In this document: positions 4,422 to 16,286 of the stretch, piece after piece
Layout: each line of letters begins with the position of its first letter
Position numbering within the stretch: position 1 is the stretch's first letter
DNA from: an uncultured Acidimicrobiaceae bacterium
GTDB taxonomy: Bacteria; Actinomycetota; Acidimicrobiia; Acidimicrobiales; RAAP-2
Assembly: GCA_963787525.1 (NCBI GenBank)
Contig: CAWBDK010000005.1
Span: forward strand, 1,891,331 to 1,955,330
Direction: 5' to 3'
DNA length: 64,000 nucleotides
The notes under the pieces: generated by a model
What the model saw: the letters and a program-made list of their open reading frames with translations, nothing else
Databases searched by the model: none
Told to the model about the DNA's origin: nothing
Position numbers and translations under genes: made by a program

Positions 4422-4596
4422 GCACCCCATCGGGCGGTTGCTCGAAGAGTACGGTGTGACGTAGGTCGATCGGCGGGCCGATGCAGGAGGCGGGTTGTGG
4501 AGCGACGACATGCCGGCCCGTGAGCCCGTGACGCTGCGAGGTCGACGGCCACGTTCGCGCTGCTCCCTCCTTCCGGCGGGGCCGGGGCGGGAAGGC

Positions 4597-6211
4597 ATGA
4601 CGACGCCAGCGGAGGCGACCCGACGCGTTCGCCCGACGCTCACTCTCGTGGCGGTGTGCGCCGGGATGGTCATGGTGCTGTTCGACGCGACCGTCACCGG
4701 ACCGGCGATGCCCACGGTCCAACGACAGCTCCATCTCTCGGTCAACCAGCTGCAGTGGTTCTTCAACGCCTACATGCTCACGACGGCCGCCCTGATGGTG
4801 CCGGCCGGGAGGCTCGGGGATCTCTACGGGCGCAGGCGGCTCTTCGTGGTGGGGATCTGCGTGTACACCGTCGGGGCCATCGGGACCGGGACCGCGCAGA
4901 GCGCAGCGTGGATCATCGGGGCGTCGGTCGTTCAGGGTGTCGGTGGGGCGTTCATCTCCACCCTTTCCCTCTCGATCATCGAAGCGTCCTTCCCGCCGGA
5001 CCGGCGGGGTCGCGCCATCGGGATCTGGACCGGCGTGCTGGGCGCATCGCTGGCGGTGGCCCCCGTGTTGGCCGGCTACCTGACCCAGCACGTCAGCTGG
5101 CGGTTCATCTTCTTCCTCACCGTCCCGATCGGCGCCCTCGCGCTCTGGGCGACGCTGCGAGGGGTCGGCGAGTCAGCGCGACCTCACCGCGGAGGGTGGT
5201 TTCGATTTCCCCGGCGGGATCCTGGCCGCGCTCGGGGTGTTCCTGATCGCCTACGCCGTCATGGAGGGTGAGACCTGGGGATGGGGGAGTCCACTGACGC
5301 TGTGCGTGCTCTTCGGCGGGCTGGCGGTGCTGGGTGCCTTCTGGGTCGTCGAACACCGCGTCCGGTTCCCCCTCGTGCCGCCCGACGTGTTGCACAACGC
5401 GCGGCTGGCGGGCGTGGACACGCTGGCAAGTCTCGTCCAGTTCGGCCAGATCGGCTTCTTCTTCTTCCTTCCGCTCTACCTGCAGAACGTGGAGGGGTAT
5501 TCCCCGACCAAGTACGGCCTCGCCGTGCTGCCGCTGACCATTGCGGCCGCCGTCGTGTCGGTCGTGGCGGGTCGACTGGTCGACCGCGTCGGGTCCCGCC
5601 TCCTTGTCTTCGGGGGCCTCGTGGCGACGGCGGTCGGGTTTGCCCTTCTCACCGGCATCGGTCCCGACACCTCCTTCGCCTCGGTGGTCGGGCCGTTCAC
5701 CTTGCTCGGCATCGGCTTCGGGATGAGCATCGCCCCCCTCACCGCGGCGGCACTGGCGAGCGTGCCCGACGAGCGGGCCGGCGTGGCCTCGGGGCTGCTC
5801 AACATGGCGCGCCAACTCGGGGGCGTCCTCGGGGTGGCCGTCCTCGGGGTGGTAGCGGACGAGCGGGCCAAGTCGGTCGCACGGTCGGAGCTGGCGCAGC
5901 AGGGGGTGCATGCCAGCACCGCCGGGCTGAACGCCGTGACCGATGTCCTGACGATACCGAGCGCGAGCGCCCAGGTCCTCGAGTCGACCTGGCACGTCTC
6001 GACGGCCCAGGCGCAACAGCTGGCCGTGACGCTCTTCACCGACGCGCTCTCCGCGGTCCTGTGGGTGAGCGCCGGGCTGTTCGTTCTCGGGAGCGGCGCC
6101 GCGCTGTGGGTGCTGCGCCGGCGGGCGGCGACGGACTCGGCGGTGCCTGATGACGCGGGACGGGAGGGGGAGGCTCTCGGGGGGCCTCAGGTCGCGGCCG
6201 GGAGCACGTAG
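4597..6211 (+). CDS. DHA2 (EmrB/QacA-like, 14-TMS) MFS efflux transporter, frameshift near 5175
   Basis: VAVCAGMVMVLFDATVTGPAMPTVQRQLHLS...GRLGDLYGRRRLF...SIIEASFPPDRRGRAIGIW, then after GES the frame changes to RDLTAEGGFDFPGGILAALGVFLIAYAV... and runs to the stop at 6211. It lies downstream of the TetR gene. Confidence 0.8.
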
Positions 6212-6981
6212 CGATCGACGGCGATGGCGAAGCCCTCGTCGTCGTTGCTGGCCGTGATCCGCCGGGCCGCCCGCTTCACCTCGGGTTCGGCGTTCCCCAT
6301 CGCGATGCTGAGCCCCGAGTGGGCGAACATCAAGATGTCGTTGGGCATGTCTCCGATGGTGGCGATCTGCGCGGGATCGAGCTCGTAGCGCTCGGGCGAG
6401 GGAGCGGGCGACGACGCCCTTGTTGGCCTGGGGGTGGGTCACGTCGAGGTAGTAGGGCTGGGAGGCCGCCGCCGTCAGGTGGTCGCCGAACTTCTCGCCC
6501 GCCGGCGCGGGCCGCCGCGGCGACGGCATCGTGGTCGTCGCTCACCCCCACCAGCTTCACGACGTTGTCGGTCAGCCCGTCGAACCCCTTCATCACCTTG
6601 GGCTCGAACTTGACCGTCCAGGCCTCCGCGGTCGACGTGCGGCCCCTTCGGGTCGGGCACGTACCACTCGGCGCCGCGGTAGAGCCACACGGCGAGCTTG
6701 AAGGACGTCATGTGGTCGGCGACGGGGACCACGAGGTCTTCGGGCACCACCCGCTGCTCCAACACGTTCATGTCCCGGTCCACCAGCAGTCCGCCGTTGA
6801 AGGCGGCGATCGGCGTCTGCAGGTCGAGGGGGTCCACCAGCATCGCCATGCCCCGCGGCGGGCGGCCGCTGGTCACGGCGAACAGCACGCCGGCGTCGCG
6901 CAGCCTGCCCACCGCGGCGATGGCGCCGTCGGTGAGGACCTTCTCCTGGGTGACCAGCGTCCCGTCCACATCGGCCAGCAT
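6187..6981 (-). pseudogene. Cof-type HAD-superfamily phosphatase, three frameshifts as assembled (~6640, ~6490, ~6395)
   Basis: MLADVDGTLVTQEKVLTDGAIAAVGRLRDAGVLFAVTSGRPPRGM (HAD motifs I/II), then VMKGFDGLTDNVVKLVGVSDD, then GEKFGDHLTAAASQPYYLDVTHPQANKG, then IATIGDMPNDILMFAHSGLSIAMGNAEPEVK...DDEGFA*. The 3' end overlaps the convergent MFS gene by 25 nt. Confidence 0.7.
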
Positions 6982-7058
6982 GAGGCGGATGGGGAGGGGC
7001 GGATGGTCCTCGGTCGGCGCGGCGTGGGAGGCGATGGGGGCGATGGTAGCGGGACCCG

Positions 7059-7834
7059 TCAGGTCCGGACGGTGTGGGAAGGCGCCGGCCGGCGCGCCCC
7101 GGGCCCGGCCGGCGGCGGCGGCGCACCCCAGCGCCACCACAACGACGGCGGCCCAGAACGAGAGGAACGACGCGCCGAGCACGGCCGCCGCCGTCTCGGC
7201 ACGCGACGACGACGCCGAGCATGACGGGCCAGGCGTCGGTGAAGCGCCGGTGGAACACGGCCAGCGAGCGCGCCGAGGTGATGCCACGGCCCAGGAAGAC
7301 GGCGAGGCCGCGCACCAGACCGAAGAGCGCGCCGATCGACAGCGCGACCCAGGGGTCGGCGGTCAGCGCGGCCAGGACGATCATCAGATAGACCGCCGAC
7401 GTCTTGATGTAGGTGACGAGCCCCGCGCCGATCTGCCAGCCGAAGCCTGCTCCGTAGACCCAGGGGCGGAACTGGTCGAGCCAGCGCTCGTTGACCTGGC
7501 GGTGATGGACGGGAAGGCGGAAACCCGCCAGTCGGGCGTCGGCTGCCGCGGCGAGCCCGGACGCGCCGCAGGCGAGCGCGGCGACCAGCACGGTCGAGAT
7601 CCCGAGGGAGCGGACGCCGGCGGCGAGGGCGGCCATGCCGATGCCCAGCGTGGCCCCGCCCAGGATGCTCCCCGCCACGAACCACGTCGCCGTCCTCGTG
7701 TAGCGGTGGCCGCGACCGCGCTCGGCGAGGGGCGTGATGGTGGCCAGCATGGAGACCCCGCAGGGCGACCAGGTCGAGGAGGCCGCCGCCACGACGGCGA
7801 TCGCCACGGCGGCGACGGCGAGGAGGATGGTCAC
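7059..7834 (-). CDS. polytopic membrane protein with CcdA/DsbD-like SPCG motif; frameshift near 7200, 3' end unresolved
   Basis: MTILLAVAAVAIAVVAAASSTWSPCGVSMLATITPL... contains 6 or more hydrophobic segments. After ...AWPVMLGVVVA the hydrophobic sequence continues in another frame (AETAAAVLGASFLSFWAAVVVVALGCAAAAG), and that frame runs stop-free into the HAD gene. A TGA in the third frame lies at 7059. Confidence 0.55.
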
Positions 7835-7859
7835 GGGTACCCCTTTCGTGTGGCGGCCG

Positions 7860-9261
7860 TCACGCCGGCGACCCGAGGAACGGCGCGCCCCCGAAGGCGA
7901 AGATCCCGCCGTCGTGCGCCACCAACCAGTAGCCGGCGTCGTTGCCGTAGGCGGCCATGCCGACGACGGGCTTGTTGAGGTGGATGCCGCCGGTGGATCC
8001 GTCGAAGACGGCGTCGCCGAACGCGAAGATGCCGCCGTCGGCGGCGACGAACCAGTAGCCCCGGCCCGACGGTGTGGCCGCCATCGCCACCACCGGGGCG
8101 TTCAGCGGCTGGCCGCCCATGGAGCCGAGGAAGACGGCGTCGCCGTAGGCGAAGATGCCGCCGTCGGCGGCGACGAGCCAGTAGCCCCGGCCCGACGGCG
8201 TGGCCGCCATCCCCACCACCGGGGCGTTCAGCGGCTGGCCGCCCATGGAGCCGAGGAAGACGGCGTCGCCGTAGTCGAAGATGCCGCCGTCGGCGGCGAC
8301 GAACCAGTAACCCTGGCCCGACGGCGTGGCCGCCATGGCGACCACCGGGGCGTTCAGCTCCTGCCCGCCCGTCGATCCGAGGAACGGCGCGCCGCCGTAG
8401 GCGAAGATGCCGCCGTCGGCACCCAACAGGTAGTAGCCCCCCGTGGGGCACGTCGCCACGGCGACGATCGGCGCTTCGAGCTGCGAGGCCCGAGGCGTCG
8501 CCGTCGTTGGCGAAGTCCCCGTAGCCGAACAGCCTCCCGAACGACGTGAGCACGGCGTACCCCGCATCGTCGGCACTGGGGGCGAGGCCGACCACCTGGC
8601 AGTTCGTGGCGGCCGAGTTGCACGGGGGCATCGGCGGGGCCGGCGTCCAGCAGGGCTCGTTCTGCTCGGCCGTCGCGTTGTCGACGGCCACGGCGGTCGT
8701 GCACGAGGGGTCGACCTGCCAGGGCGGGACGCAGGCCACGACGCGACAGACGATGCGGCCCATGCACGCAACGTCCTGGTTGCACTGGCCGTAGCGGAAC
8801 TGCAGGCAGCCGGTGAGGTACGAATCGCAGCCCTGCGGGCCGCAGCCGCACGCCGTGTCGTCGCACCCCGGCTCGCAGAAAGCGAAGCCGCCGCCGCATC
8901 CGCTGTCGCAGGTACAGGTCGAGTTGCAGTCCATGTAGTACCGCGGCCCGCCGCAGTACGAGGAATTGTCCGCCACCCACCACCCGCCCATCACCGTGTT
9001 CTCGGGGCAGTAGTTGTACCCGCTCACCGAGCAGCAGAAGTCCGAGAAGCCCGAACAGCAGGTGCTGCCGCACCCGCAGCCGGCGTTCCCGCATTCGCAG
9101 ATCGCCCCGTAGGCGGTGCCCGGCTTCAGCGCCAGGTCGAGGCCGGAGCCGATGGCGACGGCGCTGCCGACGAACGCCGACCGGTTGATCAGGCTCCGAC
9201 GGGAGAGGTGTCCCTCGAGGACCTGTGCCGTGCGCGTGACGAGCGCGCTCGGCAGGCTCAC
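7860..9261 (-). CDS. Tat-signal, cysteine-rich (28 Cys) exported protein fused to six ~42-aa propeller-like repeats; MauA-like local pattern; frameshift near 8487
   Basis: The GTG at 9261 overlaps the TGA of another frame (GTGA). The leader is HLSRRSLINRSAFVGSAVAIGSGLDLALKPGTAYG. Then comes AICECGNAGCGCGSTCCSGFSDFCCSVSGYNYCPENTVMGGWWVADNSSYCGGPRYYMDC..., followed by repeats of GYWLVAADGGIFAYGDAVFLGSMGGQPLNAPVVAMAATPSG. Confidence 0.7.
7863..8560 (-). repeat. in-frame tandem coding repeats, 126-bp period (about 6 units; units starting at 8078, 8204 and 8330 are nearly identical)
   Basis: CCGCCAT...GGCGTGG units recur at exactly 126-bp spacing (8078, 8204, 8330) with only a few substitutions. 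The flanking units are more diverged. Confidence 0.85.
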
Positions 9262-9837
9262 GTCGAAGCCGACCGGTATGCCGTTCGGGGGCTGCACCAG
9301 GCGGCGCGCCCCGTCGAGCGCCGCCAGCGCGGAGAGGGCGAGCAGGGTGAGCCACAGGCCCACCGCACTGACGAAGAGGAGGGGGAGGCCGGACCCAGGC
9401 TGGTGCGCCAGCTGCGTGAGGAGGGAGCCGTGGCCCGGTGCGCCGGCGGCGAACGCCACCGCCGCGGCGGCCAGCACGAGGTCGAAGAGGAGGTGTACGA
9501 CGGTGGGCGGCGTATCGGGCCGGCCGAAGCAGCCGCACGTGGCGAGCGGGCCTCCCCGCCGGCGGGCGTAGGCCACGACGCCGAAGAAGCAGACGTAGGA
9601 GAGGGCGACGAGCGCCGCGGTGAGCGGGCGGGGGAGCGCCAAGGCGACGAGGCCCAGCGCGGCCTCCGCCAGCGCACCGGTCCGGACGGCTCGGCGTGCC
9701 ACCCTCGGCGACGTCGCCCGGCGGCCGGGCAGGAGTGCGGCCACCGCGCGGGCGGTGTCGTCGGGCCGGATGGCCTTGGTGATGCCGGCGACCACCAGGA
9801 GTCCCGCCGCGATCAGGTAGAGGCCGATCAGTTCCAC
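9258..9837 (-). CDS. MauE/DoxX-family redox-associated membrane protein (3' end uncertain)
   Basis: The GTG at 9837 overlaps the upstream stop (GTGGAACTGA). The sequence VELIGLYLIAAGLLVVAGITKAIRPDDTARAVAAL...GGPLATCGCFGRPDTPPTVVHLLFDLVLAAAAV carries the CGCFG motif and four hydrophobic helices typical of MauE. There is no in-frame stop before the next gene, and a GTGA junction at 9258-9261 suggests a terminal frameshift. Confidence 0.65.
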
Positions 9838-10314
9838 TGGGGGCCTGCGGTGGCGACGTCGTCCGCCGGGTTCAGCGCCAACGAAGCGATCACCGAGTTG
9901 ACGCGCGGGCACCAGGAGGTTGCGGAGCGCGTGGCTGCCCAGCACCGCGTAGAAGGAGAACGGGCGACCCGCCTCGGTGAAGAACCACTGTGTGCCCGAC
10001 TGCCCCGGGATCCCCCGCCGCAGTGTCATGGGGGAGAAGTCTCCGGCCGAGAAGGCGCCGGGCCGGCCCTGCCGGGCGAACAGCGCGGTTCCCACGCTCT
10101 CGGGCCCGTACTCGAACAGGGTGGCGAACACGTCGGACGCGCCCATGAGGGTCACGGCGCCGCTGCCGAAGTCACCGACGTCGTCGGGGATGGGGAAGGT
10201 GGCGAACTGCGCCACCGGGTAGGTCGCGCCCACCGTGGAGGGCCGCACGAAGATCCTGCCTTCGAAGCCGTCGGGGAGGTGTGCCGTGATGCCGTGCGCG
10301 CCGATGGTGGCCAC
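9828..10314 (-). CDS. hypothetical protein of the Mau-like cluster, frameshift near 9905
   Basis: The GTG overlaps the upstream TAG (TAGTG at 10314). The sequence reads VATIGAHGITAHLPDGFEGRIFVRPSTVGATYPVAQFATFPIPDDVGDFGSG...WFFTEAGRPFSFYAVLGSHALRNLLVP, then RVNSVIASLALNPADDVATAGPQWN* in the +1 frame. No signal peptide or TM segment. Confidence 0.55.
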
Positions 10315-11126
10315 TAGTCGGACTGCACCGGTCGTCCGTTGACGGCGCCCGACGGCACCGCCGCCGCACCGTTGGGGAAGACGTCGTCGAGCGTGCGTGG
10401 GTAGAGGCTGGGGTCGCCCGGATGGATCCCCGCGGCGCGGAGTACCTCGTCGGCGGCCGCCTCGCGCGCCGGCCCGCCCTCGCGGCCGGTGTCGCCGCGC
10501 TCGCGGGCGGGCCGCCGCGGGGAGCGGTCGTACTCGGCCCGCCGCACCAGCTCGGCCAGCTGCCCCACGTGGTTGGCCACCCCCTGGCCGACCTTGCGGC
10601 CGGTGGCGCCGTCGACGAGCACGAAGAAGGGTGAGCCCGGAATCTGGTAGTCCACCCAGGCCTCCGTGGACATCACCACGGGCACGCTCCCCGTCGTCCT
10701 CGCCTGCACCTCGGCGGGCACCTCGCGGTCCGGTCCCTTGGTGACGATCACGATGCGCGTGCGGTCCGGGAGGTCGAGGTGGCCGGGTGCCTGCAGGGCC
10801 TCCCAGAAGCCCGCGCAGGTGGCGCAACCCGAGGAGAGGAAGCCGAGAAGCGTGAGTTGGTCGCCGTTGTCCACCGCGACGGCGCGGGCGTCCCCCGCCG
10901 GGGTGATGCCGGCGACCGCCGGGGCCGGGCCCAGGGCGGGGCCGGCCGTGGGCGCGGCCACGGGGACGGGAGCCGGAGCCGGCCCGGGTCCGGCGGTGGG
11001 GTCGCCGACGCCCACGCCGAGCTCGTGCAGCGAGCGCAGGATGTCGGCGTGGCTGCGCAGCAGGCCCGCGACGAGGATGCCGAGCACCAGGACCACGAAC
11101 GTCGAGACAATGACAAGAGCGACCAC
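10314..11126 (-). CDS. membrane-anchored thioredoxin-fold (TlpA/MauD-like) protein with CxxC
   Basis: N-terminal TM anchor MVALVIVSTFVVLVLGILVAGLL, a Pro/Ala linker, then LTLLGFLSSGCATCAGFWEAL...VVMSTEAWVDYQIPGSPFFVLVD. A strong RBS (GGAGGAGG) precedes the GTG. Confidence 0.75.
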   Translation of the reverse strand: MVALVIVSTFVVLVLGILVAGLLRSHADILRSLHELGVGVGDPTAGPGPAPAPVPVAAPTAGPALGPAPAVAGITPAGDARAVAVDNGDQLTLLGFLSSGCATCAGFWEALQAPGHLDLPDRTRIVIVTKGPDREVPAEVQARTTGSVPVVMSTEAWVDYQIPGSPFFVLVDGATGRKVGQGVANHVGQLAELVRRAEYDRSPRRPARERGDTGREGGPAREAAADEVLRAAGIHPGDPSLYPRTLDDVFPNGAAAVPSGAVNGRPVQSD

Positions 11127-11240: not shown

Positions 11241-12435
11241 ATGGTGTCTTCTGACGATCTCTTCCTACCCGAGCCCGAGCCCCGGGAGGTGCGCTACACG
11301 GTGATCTCGGTCGACGACCACGTCGTCGAGCCCGCCCACACGTTCGAGGGGCGCCTGCCCGCCGCGCTGGCGGATCGGGCCCCCCGGATCGTCGAGACGC
11401 CCCAGGGCCACCAGGTCTGGGAGTTCGAGGGGGAGCGCTACACCCAGGTCGGGATGAACGCGGTGGCGGGCCGCCGCCCGGAGACCTACGGCCTCGAGCC
11501 CTTCCGCTTCGACCAGATGCGGGCGGGCTGCTACGACGCCGATGCCCGCGTGCGCGACATGGACATCAACGGCGTCTGGGCGTCGGTGAACTTCCCGTCC
11601 ATGATCACCGGGTTCTGTGGCCGGGTCTTCTTCGACGCCAAGGACCGGGACCTGGGCCTGGCCTGCGTCAGGGCCTGGAACGACTGGCTCTTCGAGGAGT
11701 GGTTCACGCCTCATCGTGAGCGGATCGTCCCGCTCGGGATCACTTACCTCGCCGACCCCGCCCTCGCCGTGGCCGAGATCCGCCGCAACGCGGCCCGCGG
11801 ATTCACCTCGGTGACCTTGCCCGAGCGCCCCCACGAGATCGGGCTGCCCTCGCTGTGGGACCGGGCCCACTGGGACCCGATCATGGAGGCCGTGGTCGAG
11901 ACGGACACCGTCGATCTCGCTCCACGTCGGCAGCTCCGGCCTGACCCCGCCGCCACCGGGGGCCGGCATGGACGCCCTGCAGCTCGGGGCGACGCTCTTC
12001 GGACAGCTGTCGCTCATCGCGTGCGCCGAGTGGCTGTGGTCCGGGTACGCGGCGCGCCACCCCACGCTCAAGATCGCCATGAGCGAGGGGGGCATCGGTT
12101 GGGTGGCCATGCTGTGCGACCGGCTCGACAACATCGTCGACCGCTCCGGCTACGGCCTCGGCTGGGACGTGCGGCCGTCCGAGGTGCTGCGGCGCAACTT
12201 CTGGTTCTGCACGATCGACGATCCCTCGACCATCGACACGCGCCATGCGATCGGGGTCGACCACATCATGGTCGAGGTCGACTACCCGCACGGCGACAGC
12301 ACCTGGCCCGACACCCAGGACGTGATCGAGCGGTGCTGGGGCCACATCCCGGCCGACGAGCTGCGCGCCATGTGCTGCGAGAACGCGGCCGCCCTCTACC
12401 GCCACCCGCTGCCCGACCGCGTCCTGCCGCGCTGA
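11241..12435 (+). CDS. amidohydrolase-2 (ACMSD-like) family metal-dependent hydrolase, frameshift near 11912
   Basis: YTVISVDDHVVEPAHTFEGRLP...DMDINGVWASVNFPS...WNDWLFEEW...IVPLGITYL, then ISLHVGSSG...KIAMSEGGIGWV...IMVEVDYPHGDSTWPD. Confidence 0.75.
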
Positions 12436-12447
12436 GAGGAGGCCACC

Positions 12448-13171
12448 GTGTTCACACCGACCGCGGAGAAGCTGATGCCGGACCTGACACCACGCGAGGA
12501 GCTCGTCGTCCTCGCCCGCGCCCTGTGGCGGGAGGGCTACAACGACCACCTGGCCGGGCACATCACGGTCAACCTCGGCGACGGCACGTTGTTGTGCAAC
12601 CCGTGGCTCCTCACCTGGGCGGAGCTGCGCCCCTCGCAGGTGCTGCGCATCGACCTCGACGGGCGCGTCGTGGAGGGGGACTGGCCCGTCCCCCTCGGCA
12701 TCCCCCTCCACCTGCAGCTGCACAAGCTGCGGGCCGACGTGGGGTGGGCGCTGCACAACCACCCGCTCTTCGGCACGGTCTGGGCCGACCTGGCCGAGGT
12801 GCCTCCGATTCTGGACCAGAGCTCCGCGCTGGGCGGTGGCACGCTCGCGCTGGTCGACGAGTACGAAGGCCCGGTGAACGACGCCGGGAGCGCGCGCCGC
12901 GCCGTGGAGCAGATGGGGGACGCGGCCATGGCGCTCCTGGCCGGCCACGGCGTGTTCGTCCTCGGCGGATCGGCCCGGGCCGTGCACCAGCGCGCCGTCG
13001 CGCTGGAGCAGCGCTGCCAGCACGCCTGGTACGCCCGCGCCGCCGGCGGCAGCGGTGCCTCGAGGCTGCCGCAGGCCTTCGTCGACCTGGTGGCGCGGAG
13101 CGACGGCGAGGGTTTCATCGGCTTCTGGGAGGCGGCGGTGCGGGCCGAGCTGGCGGCCGACCCCGACCTGC

Positions 13172-13182
<11 letters not shown>
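12448..13182 (+). CDS. class II aldolase/adducin-domain protein
   Basis: Intact 244-aa ORF: LARALWREGYNDHLAGHITVNLGDG...PLHLQLHKLRADVGWALHNHPLFGTVWA...LLAGHGVFVLGGSARAVHQRAVALEQ. Confidence 0.75.
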
Positions 13183-14245
<1,063 letters not shown>

Positions 14246-14249
<4 letters not shown>

Positions 14250-15271
14250 GCCGCGTCCGCGTGCGTGGTTGCCCAGGCCAGCAGCTCGTCGGCCGGCCGG
14301 CGGTTGACGATGCGTTCGAACGGCACGTCCGCCGCCACCGCGTTGCGGCAGCCGCGCCCGAGCCAGCCGAGTTGGCCCGGGGCGTGGGCGTCGGTGTCGA
14401 TGGCGAAGGAGCACCCGAGGCCGACGGCGTGGCGCAACAGGTCCTCGGGTGGGTCCTGGCGCTCGGGCCGGGAGTTGATCTCGACGGCGGTGCCGGTGCG
14501 GGCGCAGGCGGCGAACACCGCGTCGGCGTCGAACGCCGACTGCGGGCGGCCCTTCCCGGTGATCAGGCGGCCCGTGCAGTGGCCGAGGATGTCGGTGTGC
14601 GGGCTCTCGATGGCGGCCAGCATGCGGGCGGTCATCTGCGGCGCGTCCATGCGCAGCTTGGAGTGCACGCTGGCCACGACGACGTCGAGCTCGGACAGGA
14701 GGTCGAGGTCGAGGTCGAGCGAGCCGTCTTCGAGGATGTCCACCTCCATGCCGGTCAGGATGCGGAACGGCGACAGCTCCTCGTTCAGCTCGCGCACCAC
14801 CTCGAGCTGCTCGCGGAGCCGCTCCTCGTTGAGGCCGTGGGCCACGGTGAGGCGCGCGCTGTGGTCGGTCAGCACCAGGTACTCGCGCCCGAGGTCGCGG
14901 GCCGCCCGCGCCATCTCGCCGATGGGGCTGCCGCCGTCGGACCAGTCCGAGTGGGAGTGGCAGTCGCCCCGCAGCGACGCCAGGAGCTCCGCCGCCGGCC
15001 CGTCGACCACCAGGTCGTCCGGCCCGTCGTCGAGCTTGGACAGGTAGCCCGGGATCTCGCCCCGCAGCGCCTCGGCGATGACCTGCGCGGTCGAGTTGCC
15101 GACGCCCTCGATGCTCTGCAGCCGGCCCGCCTGCGCCAGCGCCGCCAGCTCCCCCGGCGGCACCGACGCGAGGGCCCTGGCCGCGTGCCGGAAGGCACGC
15201 ACCTTGTAGGTGTCGGCCCCGCTGCGCTCCAGGCGGAACGCGATCTCGTTCAGCGCGTCGAGCGGGTCCAT
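14246..15271 (-). CDS. HhH-PHP phosphoesterase (PolX-like 8-kDa/HhH N-domain plus PHP domain, without a nucleotidyltransferase core)
   Basis: Intact 341 aa. It contains NEIAFRLERSGADTYKVRAFRHAARAL, RLQSIEGVGNSTAQVIAEAL (HhH), then LRGDCHSHSDWSDGG...LVLTDHS...VVASVHS...LGHCTGR...FAIDTDAH (PHP metal-ligand motifs). Confidence 0.8.
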
Positions 15272-15274
15272 CCG

Positions 15275-16286
15275 CTACGCCTTCTTGGCCCGGCTCGGGG
15301 CCACCCGCGGTGGCTCGTCGGGCATCTTCGGGTACTGCGGCGGCCAGGGTGCGTCGTGCAACCCGGCCGCCTTGTCCGCGTCGGCCAGCGCCAGCAGGGG
15401 CTCGAGCGACTGGGGCCAGCTCGCCGATGGCGGCCCACGGGTCGCCCCGCCGGCGGACCAGGTCCGGCACCGTGCGGATGGTCAGCTCGTTGGGCGTGAC
15501 CGTCTCGACCTCTTCCCAGGAGAGGGGCGTCGACACCTGCCCACCCGTGCGGGGCCGGGCGAACCAGGCGCCGAAGACCGTCTTGTGCGGCGCGTTCTGG
15601 TTGAAGTCGACGAAGACGCGGCTGCCCCGCTCCTCCTTCCACCAGTTCGCGGTGATCAGGTCCGGGAAGCGACGTTCGAGCTCGCGGGCCAGCGCAACGG
15701 CGGCGGCCCGGACCTGCACGGAGTCCCAGCGCGCCTCGAGGCGCAGGTACACGTGGAGCCCGTTGCTGCCCGTCGTCTTCGGGTACCCCCGCAGGCCCAG
15801 CTCGCCCAGCACGTCGCGGCAGTGGAGCGCCGCGGCGCGCACCTCATCGAAACCGATGCCGGTCGTGGGGTCGAGGTCGATGCGCAGCTCGTCGGCGTGG
15901 TCCGGGTCGGCGGCACGGTACGGCCACAGGTGCAGACCGAGACAGCCGATGTTGACGGCCCACACGACGTGGGCGATGTCGGCGACGACGAGCGCGTTGG
16001 ACGTGGTGCCGTTCGGGGTGGAGACGGTGGTGGACTCCAGCCAGTCGGGGGCGCCGGCAGGGATCCGCTTCTGGTAGAAGGACTTGCCGGTGGCGCCCTC
16101 GGGGAAGCGCTGCAGCATGGCGGGGCGGCCCCCGGCCGTGTTGAGGAGGTGCTCGCCCACCTCGAGGTAGTACGAGACGAGGTCGAACTTGGTGGCGTCG
16201 AGCCCGGGGAAGTACACCTTGTCCGGCCGGGAGATGCGCAGCTCGCGGCCGTCGACCTCCACCGTCCGCTCGTCGTCCCCTGGCAC
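15275..16286 (-). CDS. LigD-type primase-polymerase (AEP family) stand-alone protein, frameshift near 15415
   Basis: VEVDGRELRISRPDKVYFP...LQRFPEG...FYQKR...VWAVNIGCLGLHLWP...ELRIDLDP...YPKTTGSNGLHVYLRL...RVFVDFNQNAPHKTV, then QSLEPLLALADADKAAGLHDAPWPPQYPKMPDEPPRVAPSRAKKA*. Confidence 0.88.

Follow-up and report, generated by a model that had tools for sequence, protein, structure and literature searches.

A conserved five-gene cluster of uncultured Acidimicrobiia places MauF-, MauE- and MauD-like genes beside a predicted Tat-exported, cysteine-rich protein

We report that a 64-kb stretch of DNA from an uncultured soil actinobacterium of the Acidimicrobiaceae (assembly GCA_963787525.1, contig CAWBDK010000005.1; hereafter the window, which is the part of the source genome inspected here) carries five consecutive minus-strand genes, g1 to g5 (about 11126-7059), in which relatives of MauE, MauF and, more weakly, MauD stand beside g4, a gene for a protein with a twin-arginine translocation (Tat) leader and a cysteine-rich head of an undescribed family. 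MauF, MauE and MauD have been known for some thirty years as genes of the methylamine dehydrogenase (MADH) small subunit: mutants in mauF, mauE or mauD lack this subunit, for whose production the genes are needed, and their biochemistry is largely open. On balance, we think it probable that the five genes form an operon that makes and matures one extracytoplasmic client, the g4 product, and that they constitute a dedicated MauFED-type pathway for the oxidative folding and export of a surface-anchored, disulfide-dense protein. Of the possibilities raised in an earlier note on this DNA, the best fit is an extracytoplasmic protein that is dense in disulfides and has redox maturation machinery dedicated to it.

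Gene calls are based on a three-frame translation of the minus strand from 11300 to 6100 and on the open reading frame (ORF) list, which place six successive genes at 11126-6187, the sixth being a HAD phosphatase gene. The overlaps and junctions that the earlier note described for these packed genes were reproduced base by base. The TAG stop of g1 (10316-10314) overlaps the GTG start of g2 (10314-10312), GTGGAACTGA at 9837-9828 contains the GTG start of g3 and the TGA stop of g2, and GTGA at 9261-9258 combines the g4 start with the expected g3 stop. Between the g4 stop (7862-7860) and the GTG of g5 (7834) lies a 25-nucleotide spacer that holds AAAGGGG, a ribosome-binding-like sequence. A scan of the region for promoters and terminators yielded nothing informative.

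For comparison, a genome scan returned 312 contig stretches that encode a relative of the g4 head; the locus counts given below refer to the best 80 of these or to a set of 81 loci. The 80 have 75-92% head identity and come from metagenome-assembled genomes (MAGs) of uncultured Acidimicrobiaceae or Acidimicrobiales; the only other named taxon is Iamia sp. Locus L027 supplied the clean gene models. The window (72% G+C) contains at least seven frameshifts within 6187-10314, located by tblastn with clean orthologues: in g2 at ~9907, at the C terminus of g3 at ~9283, in g4 at ~8487, in g5 at ~7196 and three in the HAD gene. Such a density might be read as the mark of a decaying locus in which g4 and the genes around it are pseudogenes. 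We find this scarcely credible: a similar density is seen in unrelated flanking genes, an MFS transporter (4495-6211, plus strand), an amidohydrolase (11265-13250, plus strand) and a LigD-like ligase/primase (12537-16286, minus strand) each being broken into two or three frames; P0001/L001, a noisy contig that is closely related, is damaged alike; the clean assembly L027 has intact genes; one inserted base accounts for the shift in g4; and long-read soil MAG projects are the source of many of the relatives. Since the flanking genes are also split, the frameshifts are assembly indels and not decay of the locus, and their frequency points to an under-polished long-read assembly. Single-ORF readings anywhere in the window require frame correction.

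The shift in g4, which the earlier note had placed at ~8487, is real in the window sequence and consists of one extra base at ~8483-8486 (feature 8483-8487) relative to four homologous loci with one open frame (L014, L002, L005 and L008). Relatives have intact single ORFs, so that g4 stands as the single polypeptide proposed earlier and the shift marks an assembly error, not a gene boundary. At 9258-9300 of the window assembly, g3 reads in frame into g4 without a stop, giving an apparent MauE-client fusion; the indel at ~9283 removes the stop, and in L027 g3 has its own stop and the GTGA overlap with g4. Similar fusions of MauE to the head occur in the database proteins P0091 and P0188, with 3 fusions among 98 scanned members, and are probably the same assembly artefact. 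Downstream (6981-7200), beyond the frameshift at ~7196, the g5 frame stays open right into the HAD gene. A stop codon is present at 7061-7059 but in a different frame, and in L027 the HAD gene starts ~100 nucleotides after g5 has ended. For the window, the 3' boundary of g5 is thus uncertain.

We compared the gene products with the proteins of the canonical Paracoccus cluster mauR-F-B-E-D-A-C-J-G-M-N (locus L085). The product of g3 (9258-9837) scores 58.2 bits (E 1.4e-15) with the Pfam family PF07291 (MauE), whose cutoff is 27, over model positions 9-126 of 128, and contains PLATCGCFGRPD, in which CGCFG, a CXC motif followed by F-G, lies between membrane helices 3 and 4. Its sequence places it in the MauE family of the DoxX clan, in agreement with the earlier note. 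A 2026 preprint reports that MauE is a DsbB-like oxidase: it replaces DsbB in E. coli, requires its CXC motif, probably binds a quinone and is proposed to act via a thioredoxin-fold partner (bioRxiv 10.64898/2026.03.05.709764).

The polytopic membrane protein g5 (7059-7834) had been described as CcdA/DsbD-like. We rejected this assignment, as g5 matches no DsbD model and has one conserved cysteine instead of two: a single cysteine, C25, is invariant among 21 sequences and is intramembrane. By sequence, g5 is instead a homologue of MauF. The Paracoccus protein aligns with it by blastp (E 7.7e-10, 31% over 172 aa) and with the profile of the 21 sequences (A6) by hhalign (98.3%, E 1.7e-14), and a tblastn search with MauF finds the window at 7777-7298 (E 1.4e-9) and 77 of the 81 loci. 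Both proteins share STWSPCG; further motifs of the g5 family are LPVHHRQVNERWLDxFRPW and FHRRF. The cluster is therefore more Mau-like than the earlier note knew. In Pfam, NCBIfam and the PDB, g5 has no match.

The 270-aa product of g1 (10314-11126) is a membrane-anchored protein of the thioredoxin-fold type, as previously proposed, and is most similar to MauD. It has an N-terminal membrane anchor, the CxxC motif SSGCATC and the cis-Pro motif PGSPFF (alignment A8), and is matched by Paracoccus MauD with blastp (E=4.5e-5) and hhalign of profile A8 (88%, E 3.1e-6), by the NCBIfam MauD model TIGR02661 (E=0.0017, 17.9 bits) and weakly by thioredoxin-fold proteins of the PDB (E 0.03-0.9). Both g1 and MauD open with a membrane anchor free of charged residues, after which comes a basic L-L-R...L-H-E stretch. 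Conserved motifs of the g1 family are LLRSHAxILRxLHxLG after the anchor and AGIxPGDPSLYP in the C-terminal tail. This tail, R-E-x-x-x-D-x-x-L-x-x-A-G-I-x-P-G-D-P-S-L-Y-P (10314-10450), is invariant, kept even in the distant loci L082, L084 and L086 described below, and absent in Paracoccus MauD. The fourth accessory gene, g2 (9828-10314), encodes a protein of 162 aa (intact in L027) that lacks a signal peptide and membrane segments and looks cytoplasmic. It has more than 3400 homologues, every one labelled 'hypothetical', and no relative in Pfam, NCBIfam or the PDB; MauJ was considered as its counterpart and rejected (hhalign 0.2%). Neither g1 nor g2 matches a Pfam family.

The presumptive client of these proteins, g4 (7860-9261), encodes 466 aa once the frame is corrected, with 29 cysteines, of which 28 fall within residues 55-221 (167 residues). 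The twin-arginine leader, the 28 cysteines and the six 42-aa repeats listed in the earlier note are all present. The leader (9106-9261; alignments A1, A3 and A7), which carries LSRRSLINRSAFVGSAVAIGSG, is conserved family-wide: an n-region helix, xLVxRxxxxLExxLSRR, leads into SRRSLI, the twin-arginine motif, which is followed by a hydrophobic region and, between AYG and A, by a probable cleavage site of the AxA type. With motif, hydrophobic region and cleavage site all in place, g4 is a predicted Tat substrate, and NCBI labels its relatives 'twin-arginine translocation signal domain-containing protein'.

The cysteine-rich head (residues 53-221; 8599-9105) follows the leader directly and is N-terminal in all sequences examined. 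Searching with the head gave 504 proteins, all labelled 'hypothetical' or 'Tat-signal' and all from metagenome bins of Acidimicrobiales, and a head profile picked out 450 clusters (50% identity) among 1.84 billion cluster representatives. Across 127 diverse sequences, about 16-20 head cysteines are invariant or nearly so, and the invariant positions (head numbering) are C35, N42, C44, P45, G52, W53, W54, C62, D70, C71, C104, F114, R115, Y116, G117, C119, C131, R132, C136 and C146, which make up the family motifs N-x-C-P, G-W-W, D-C (within RYYxDC), F-R-Y-G-x-C and C-R-x-x-x-C. The head has no sequence relative in Pfam or NCBIfam, where scans were negative even at E=10, or in the PDB, and we found no description of the family in the literature; it constitutes an undescribed domain family. 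AlphaFold gave a predicted local distance difference test (pLDDT) score below 50 with 76 close relatives, and a pLDDT of 87 with a predicted template modelling (pTM) score of 0.80 with the 127 diverse sequences. The resulting model is compact and rich in beta-hairpins, one of which, a long one, bears the GWW and DC motifs. A Foldseek search of the PDB with this model gave 29 weak matches and nothing below E=4, small irregular disulfide-rich folds being hard for Foldseek.

Behind the head, g4 continues into a tail (7863-8598) of 42-aa repeats of the form GYWLVAADGGIFAFGDAxFxGS. At the DNA level, Tandem Repeats Finder reports a 126-bp repeat in 4.2 copies with 86% matches, corresponding to five DGGIF repeats plus a degenerate first blade. 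AlphaFold models residues 212-466 as a six-bladed propeller (pLDDT >90) with repeats of three or four strands, and in Foldseek the model resembles WD40-type propellers of the PDB (E 2.5e-10), while the 42-aa repeat itself matches no Pfam propeller family. Six blades are also counted in 68 of the 81 loci. We considered variation in blade number as a sign of an oligomeric lectin and rejected it, given the 68 six-bladed loci and the finding that shorter forms sit mainly on short contigs.

Other members of the family carry different modules in this position. Among 98 diverse members scanned with Pfam, the tails contain LGFP (16), FG-GAP types (6), CWB2 (4), SLH (4), DUF4214 (3), ricin-B (2), tectonin (1), Hyd_WA (1) and DUF346 (1), and the modules that replace the propeller are wall-anchoring or carbohydrate-binding. 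By this analogy, the propeller is most likely a wall- or glycan-binding anchor or a lectin-like module and not an equivalent of MauB, because other members carry wall- or glycan-binding modules there. The idea of a MADH light and heavy chain fused in one polypeptide, put forward in the earlier note, is not supported: across the family, the place of the tail can be taken by modules of the LGFP, SLH, CWB2, FG-GAP, ricin or tectonin type, and the predicted propeller of g4 has six blades. Some close Acidimicrobiales relatives have short, unrelated tails with ends like WGVxELP instead of a propeller, either at ~265-276 aa (P0085, P0089, P0118 and P0119) or at ~305 aa (P0043, P0082, P0088, P0097, P0107, P0112, P0116 and P0117).

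The neighbourhood that the earlier note had singled out is conserved. The order g1-g2-g3-g4-g5 is colinear in 79-80 of the 80 comparison loci, and g1 and g2 are each present in 80 of the 81. The sixth gene of the unit as first drawn does not belong to it: the HAD gene is found at variable distance in 51 of the 81 loci and is absent beside distant members, leaving a conserved unit of five genes. We then examined five distant members with heads of 44-54% identity. In L082, whose client has an SLH tail, the order is MauE, client, MauD-like and g2, with the MauF-like gene on the other strand; L084 (LGFP tail) reads MauE, MauD-like, g2, client; and L086 (CWB2 tail) reads MauD-like, MauF-like, g2, MauE, client. 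At these three loci blastp confirmed the g1- and g2-like genes, and in L082 and L086 the MauF-like gene as well. The remaining two have neighbouring genes of matching sizes, including MauE in P0200, whose tail is not recognised, while P0251 (LGFP tail), judged without its DNA, has no Pfam-annotated MauE. A Pfam-annotated MauE adjoins the client or lies within two genes of it, in rearranged order, in four of the five. Because the linkage survives rearrangement, it argues for g1-g5 being a functional five-gene module.

This linkage bears directly on the possibility that MauE and the thioredoxin-like protein are a general, housekeeping system of oxidative folding, with g4 as a heavy user that happens to lie nearby and g2 and g5 as unrelated neighbours. 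Such an arrangement would agree with the recent portrayal of MauE as a generalist that can stand in for DsbB and of which only 10% of the species that have it also have MauA (bioRxiv 10.64898/2026.03.05.709764), and our view of the source genome is that of 64 kb. But MauE, the MauD-like gene and g2 travel with the head down to ~45% identity, through differing tails and gene orders, and a chance neighbourhood is unlikely because the accessory linkage persists across such divergence. In addition, g5 is homologous to MauF, which is otherwise known from mau clusters, and g1 has family-specific conserved motifs at both ends. We consider the housekeeping explanation rather unlikely, and retain a pathway dedicated to g4 as the better account.

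Is the client, then, a relative of MauA? The earlier note had seen in the head a MauA-like cysteine module and suggested a comparison with PF02975 (MauA), which matched none of six diverse heads at E up to 10. Likewise, profiles A2 and A7 run against PDB sequences retrieved no light chain of MADH or aromatic amine dehydrogenase (AADH), missing even the full precursor 3C75_L and finding only the Tat leaders of NosZ, and Foldseek matched the head model to no MADH or AADH light chain, so that a fold like that of chain L of PDB 2BBK was not encountered. When the mature domains are compared by hhalign, head and MauA give one marginal local match around G-x-N-x-C-P-P-G-T, suggestive but short of significance, with a score of 22.8 (P 0.0057, probability 6%), against 13.9 +/- 2.9 for 200 column-shuffled MauA profiles, 1 of which attains 22.8. 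The precursors align far better (96%, E 2.7e-9), but a profile of the head-family leader scores 29.4 with the MauA leader and 13-25 (maximum 24.9) with ten unrelated Tat leaders, and NosZ leaders are the top PDB matches. The 96% is therefore mostly generic Tat-signal similarity, which inflates it.

In low-confidence alignments, the quinone residue Trp57 of MauA falls opposite the second tryptophan in the invariant GWW, and Asp76-Cys77 opposite the invariant D-C of RYYxDC; Trp108, the cross-link partner, meets a variable head position (A, D, E, G and others). Paracoccus MauA precursor also matches the member P0160 by blastp over 145 aa with E=0.001 in a five-sequence database. On this mixed evidence we put homology of head and MauA at roughly even odds, and a canonical tryptophan tryptophylquinone (TTQ) site in the head is unlikely.

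These observations define a further rival, in which the head is a MauA homologue with a cofactor like TTQ or cysteine tryptophylquinone (CTQ) and the propeller acts as MauB, the whole being a single-chain quinoprotein amine dehydrogenase or oxidase at the cell surface. Its arguments are the helper genes, since MauF, MauE and MauD are the set tied to small-subunit biogenesis, the CPPGT-centred match with its score above the shuffled null, the placement of Trp57 and Asp76-Cys77, the P0160 match and the predicted hairpin that carries both GWW and DC. They are met by the failure of PF02975, PDB sequence and Foldseek searches to find a MADH light chain, by the generic origin of most of the precursor score, by the variable position under Trp108 and by a tail that has six blades, not seven, and is swapped for anchoring or lectin modules elsewhere. 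Moreover, tblastn with ten Paracoccus Mau proteins found only MauF in the 64 kb of the window, and MauB, MauC (amicyanin), MauG, MauJ, MauM and MauN in none of 81 loci; neither these six nor another acceptor is encoded in the window or in the 10 kb to either side at 80 loci. The locus is not a canonical MADH cluster, as the earlier note had recognised, and we judge a quinone enzyme of this kind unlikely. Equally unlikely is a related reading, in which the head would be a deeply diverged MauA-type domain that, once matured by MauF, MauE, MauD and g2, bears a Trp-derived quinone or another Cys/Trp cross-linked cofactor, built at the invariant GWW...DC site without MauG. If true, single-chain quinoproteins anchored to the wall would be a class of their own, new to science, in Acidimicrobiia.

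We therefore return to oxidative folding of g4 as the preferred reading. Here, the g4 leader would send the client to the Tat pathway, and the propeller would fasten the head to the cell envelope or to a glycan. The CGC motif of MauE (g3), together with a membrane quinone, may act as a DsbB-like oxidant that re-oxidises the CxxC of membrane-anchored g1, which in turn would introduce or shuffle disulfides in the head; 28 cysteines are enough for 14. Electrons would accordingly run from the client to the CxxC of g1, to the CGC of MauE and on to the quinone. Both g5 and soluble g2 may belong to the same pathway, possibly in handling or escorting the leader-bearing precursor.

The topology of the membrane proteins sits uneasily with this scheme. 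In a positive-inside tally, three conserved elements fall on the side rich in lysine and arginine (K/R), which is normally cytoplasmic: the MauE loop that bears CGC, the g1 thioredoxin domain and the conserved g5 loops. The canonical Paracoccus proteins show the same K/R side, opposite to the expected outward topology. The tally hints at oxidative folding on the cytoplasmic face before Tat export, and there is room for folding before export because of the combination of this tally with Tat export.

Several points weigh against a dedicated oxidative pathway for g4. The K/R tally conflicts with an extracytoplasmic, DsbB/DsbA-type picture and with complementation of DsbB; g1 lies below the equivalog cutoff of TIGR02661 (17.9 against 188.6 bits); g2 has no predicted role; and, with MauE a generalist in the preprint, g3 could serve the whole cell. 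Disulfide formation, the number of bonds and the route of the electrons are all inferences, and the anchoring role of the propeller is drawn by analogy from the tails of other members.

The same K/R-rich placement of the accessory motifs lends some appeal to a different use of the cysteines, as ligands of Cu(I) or Zn thiolate sites or of Fe-S clusters inserted in the cytoplasm, with the helpers keeping thiols reduced or delivering metal. Tat substrates are often loaded with cofactor before export, and cytoplasmic insertion would account for the Tat leader. The CxC, CC and CGC patterns of the head recall metallothionein-type spacing, g2 looks cytoplasmic and g5 has its single invariant intramembrane cysteine. 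The head nevertheless lacks a ferredoxin-type CxxCxxCxxxCP motif and matches no known metal-binding family, MauE is known from experiment as an oxidant of thioredoxin-fold partners, and the even cysteine count and compact, beta-hairpin-rich model suit a disulfide-stabilised fold. The closest analogue, the MADH small subunit, uses its cysteines for disulfides, of which it forms six. We regard a metal or cluster protein as very unlikely, and favour disulfides over metal sites in the g4 head.

Beyond the five genes, the window encodes at 6187-6981 (minus strand, three frameshifts) a Cof-type HAD-IIB phosphatase (180 bits with PF08282; 164 bits with TIGR00099, whose cutoff is 137). In L001, a PNPOx-family gene (10201-10665) lies between g5 and the HAD gene. 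Synteny shared among relatives (window flanks; L027, 12852-14237) extends upstream to LigD-like genes, a class II aldolase and an amidohydrolase, and downstream through the HAD phosphatase to DnaB, SSB and ribosomal protein L9. Two bins contain the region twice: L056 and L059, both from MAG MFD04434.bin.2.146, run colinear for 20 kb with 82-85% identity, and L049 and L050 (MFD01716.bin.2.94) are colinear copies at 99% identity. We considered L056 and L059 as paralogous systems and rejected this, the 20-kb colinearity at 82-85% pointing to two strains in one bin; the duplicate regions of both bins indicate mixed strains or duplicate contigs rather than paralogous operons.

Taken together, our findings indicate that the clients of these Mau helpers probably include proteins other than methylamine dehydrogenase. 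They offer a second, independent system for working out the roles of MauF and MauD, they suggest that some 'orphan' MauE genes may have cognate clients, and they define the head domain and g2 as two families of uncharacterised proteins.

Set beside the mau cluster of Paracoccus (mauRFBEDACJGMN), the window system shares homologues of MauF, MauE and, more weakly, MauD next to a Tat-targeted client that is predicted to be disulfide-dense; a short CPPGT-centred motif and a GWW/DC pattern may recall the Trp57/Asp76 region of MauA. It differs in having no MauB, MauG, amicyanin, MauJ, MauM or MauN, in its additional gene g2 and in its host, a monoderm member of the Acidimicrobiia instead of a proteobacterial methylotroph. 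Compared with MauA itself, the head has 28 cysteines rather than 12 and a variable residue at the Trp108 position, goes unrecognised by PF02975, PDB sequence search and Foldseek, and is fused to a tail, which is either a predicted propeller of six blades or another module that binds the wall or glycans.

The MauE pathway described recently (bioRxiv 10.64898/2026.03.05.709764) resembles the window system in its CGC-FG motif, its thioredoxin-superfamily partner and the lack of a recognisable MauA. There, MauE is treated as a generalist oxidase, whereas here it is found in an operon with one cysteine-rich client, a MauF-like protein and g2, and the K/R distribution of its loops is the opposite of that predicted for an outward-facing CXC loop. 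A MauE locked into an operon in this way suggests a dedicated system and a hidden class of MauA-like clients. The proposed logic, from a quinone-linked oxidase through a CxxC carrier to an exported protein, is also that of the DsbB-DsbA and VKOR-DsbA systems. In the window, the oxidase would come from the unrelated DoxX/MauE family, the client would take the Tat rather than the Sec route, and there are two more obligatory-looking partners, the MauF-like protein and g2, along with a single operon-linked substrate.

Candidate clusters for peptides that are synthesised by ribosomes and modified after translation (RiPPs) in Streptomyces, found with decRiPPter, likewise have mauE, with or without mauD, next to a cysteine-rich product, in actinobacteria without a mau pathway (PMC7794033). 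Their precursors are 46-66 aa long and have no RR motif, no FRYGQC and no GGWW, and we rejected them as kin of g4; they belong to a different family. The tails of the g4 family, in turn, are those of Gram-positive surface proteins, with SLH, CWB2 and LGFP anchors or propeller and ricin lectins placed C-terminal to the head; the propeller of the window occupies the same position, its 42-aa repeat differing from these in matching no Pfam propeller family. The MauE, MauF and MauD families, Tat export and propellers are thus already known; what is new is the operon-level dedication of Mau helpers to an uncatalogued client with interchangeable, predicted surface-anchoring tails, together with the partner g2.

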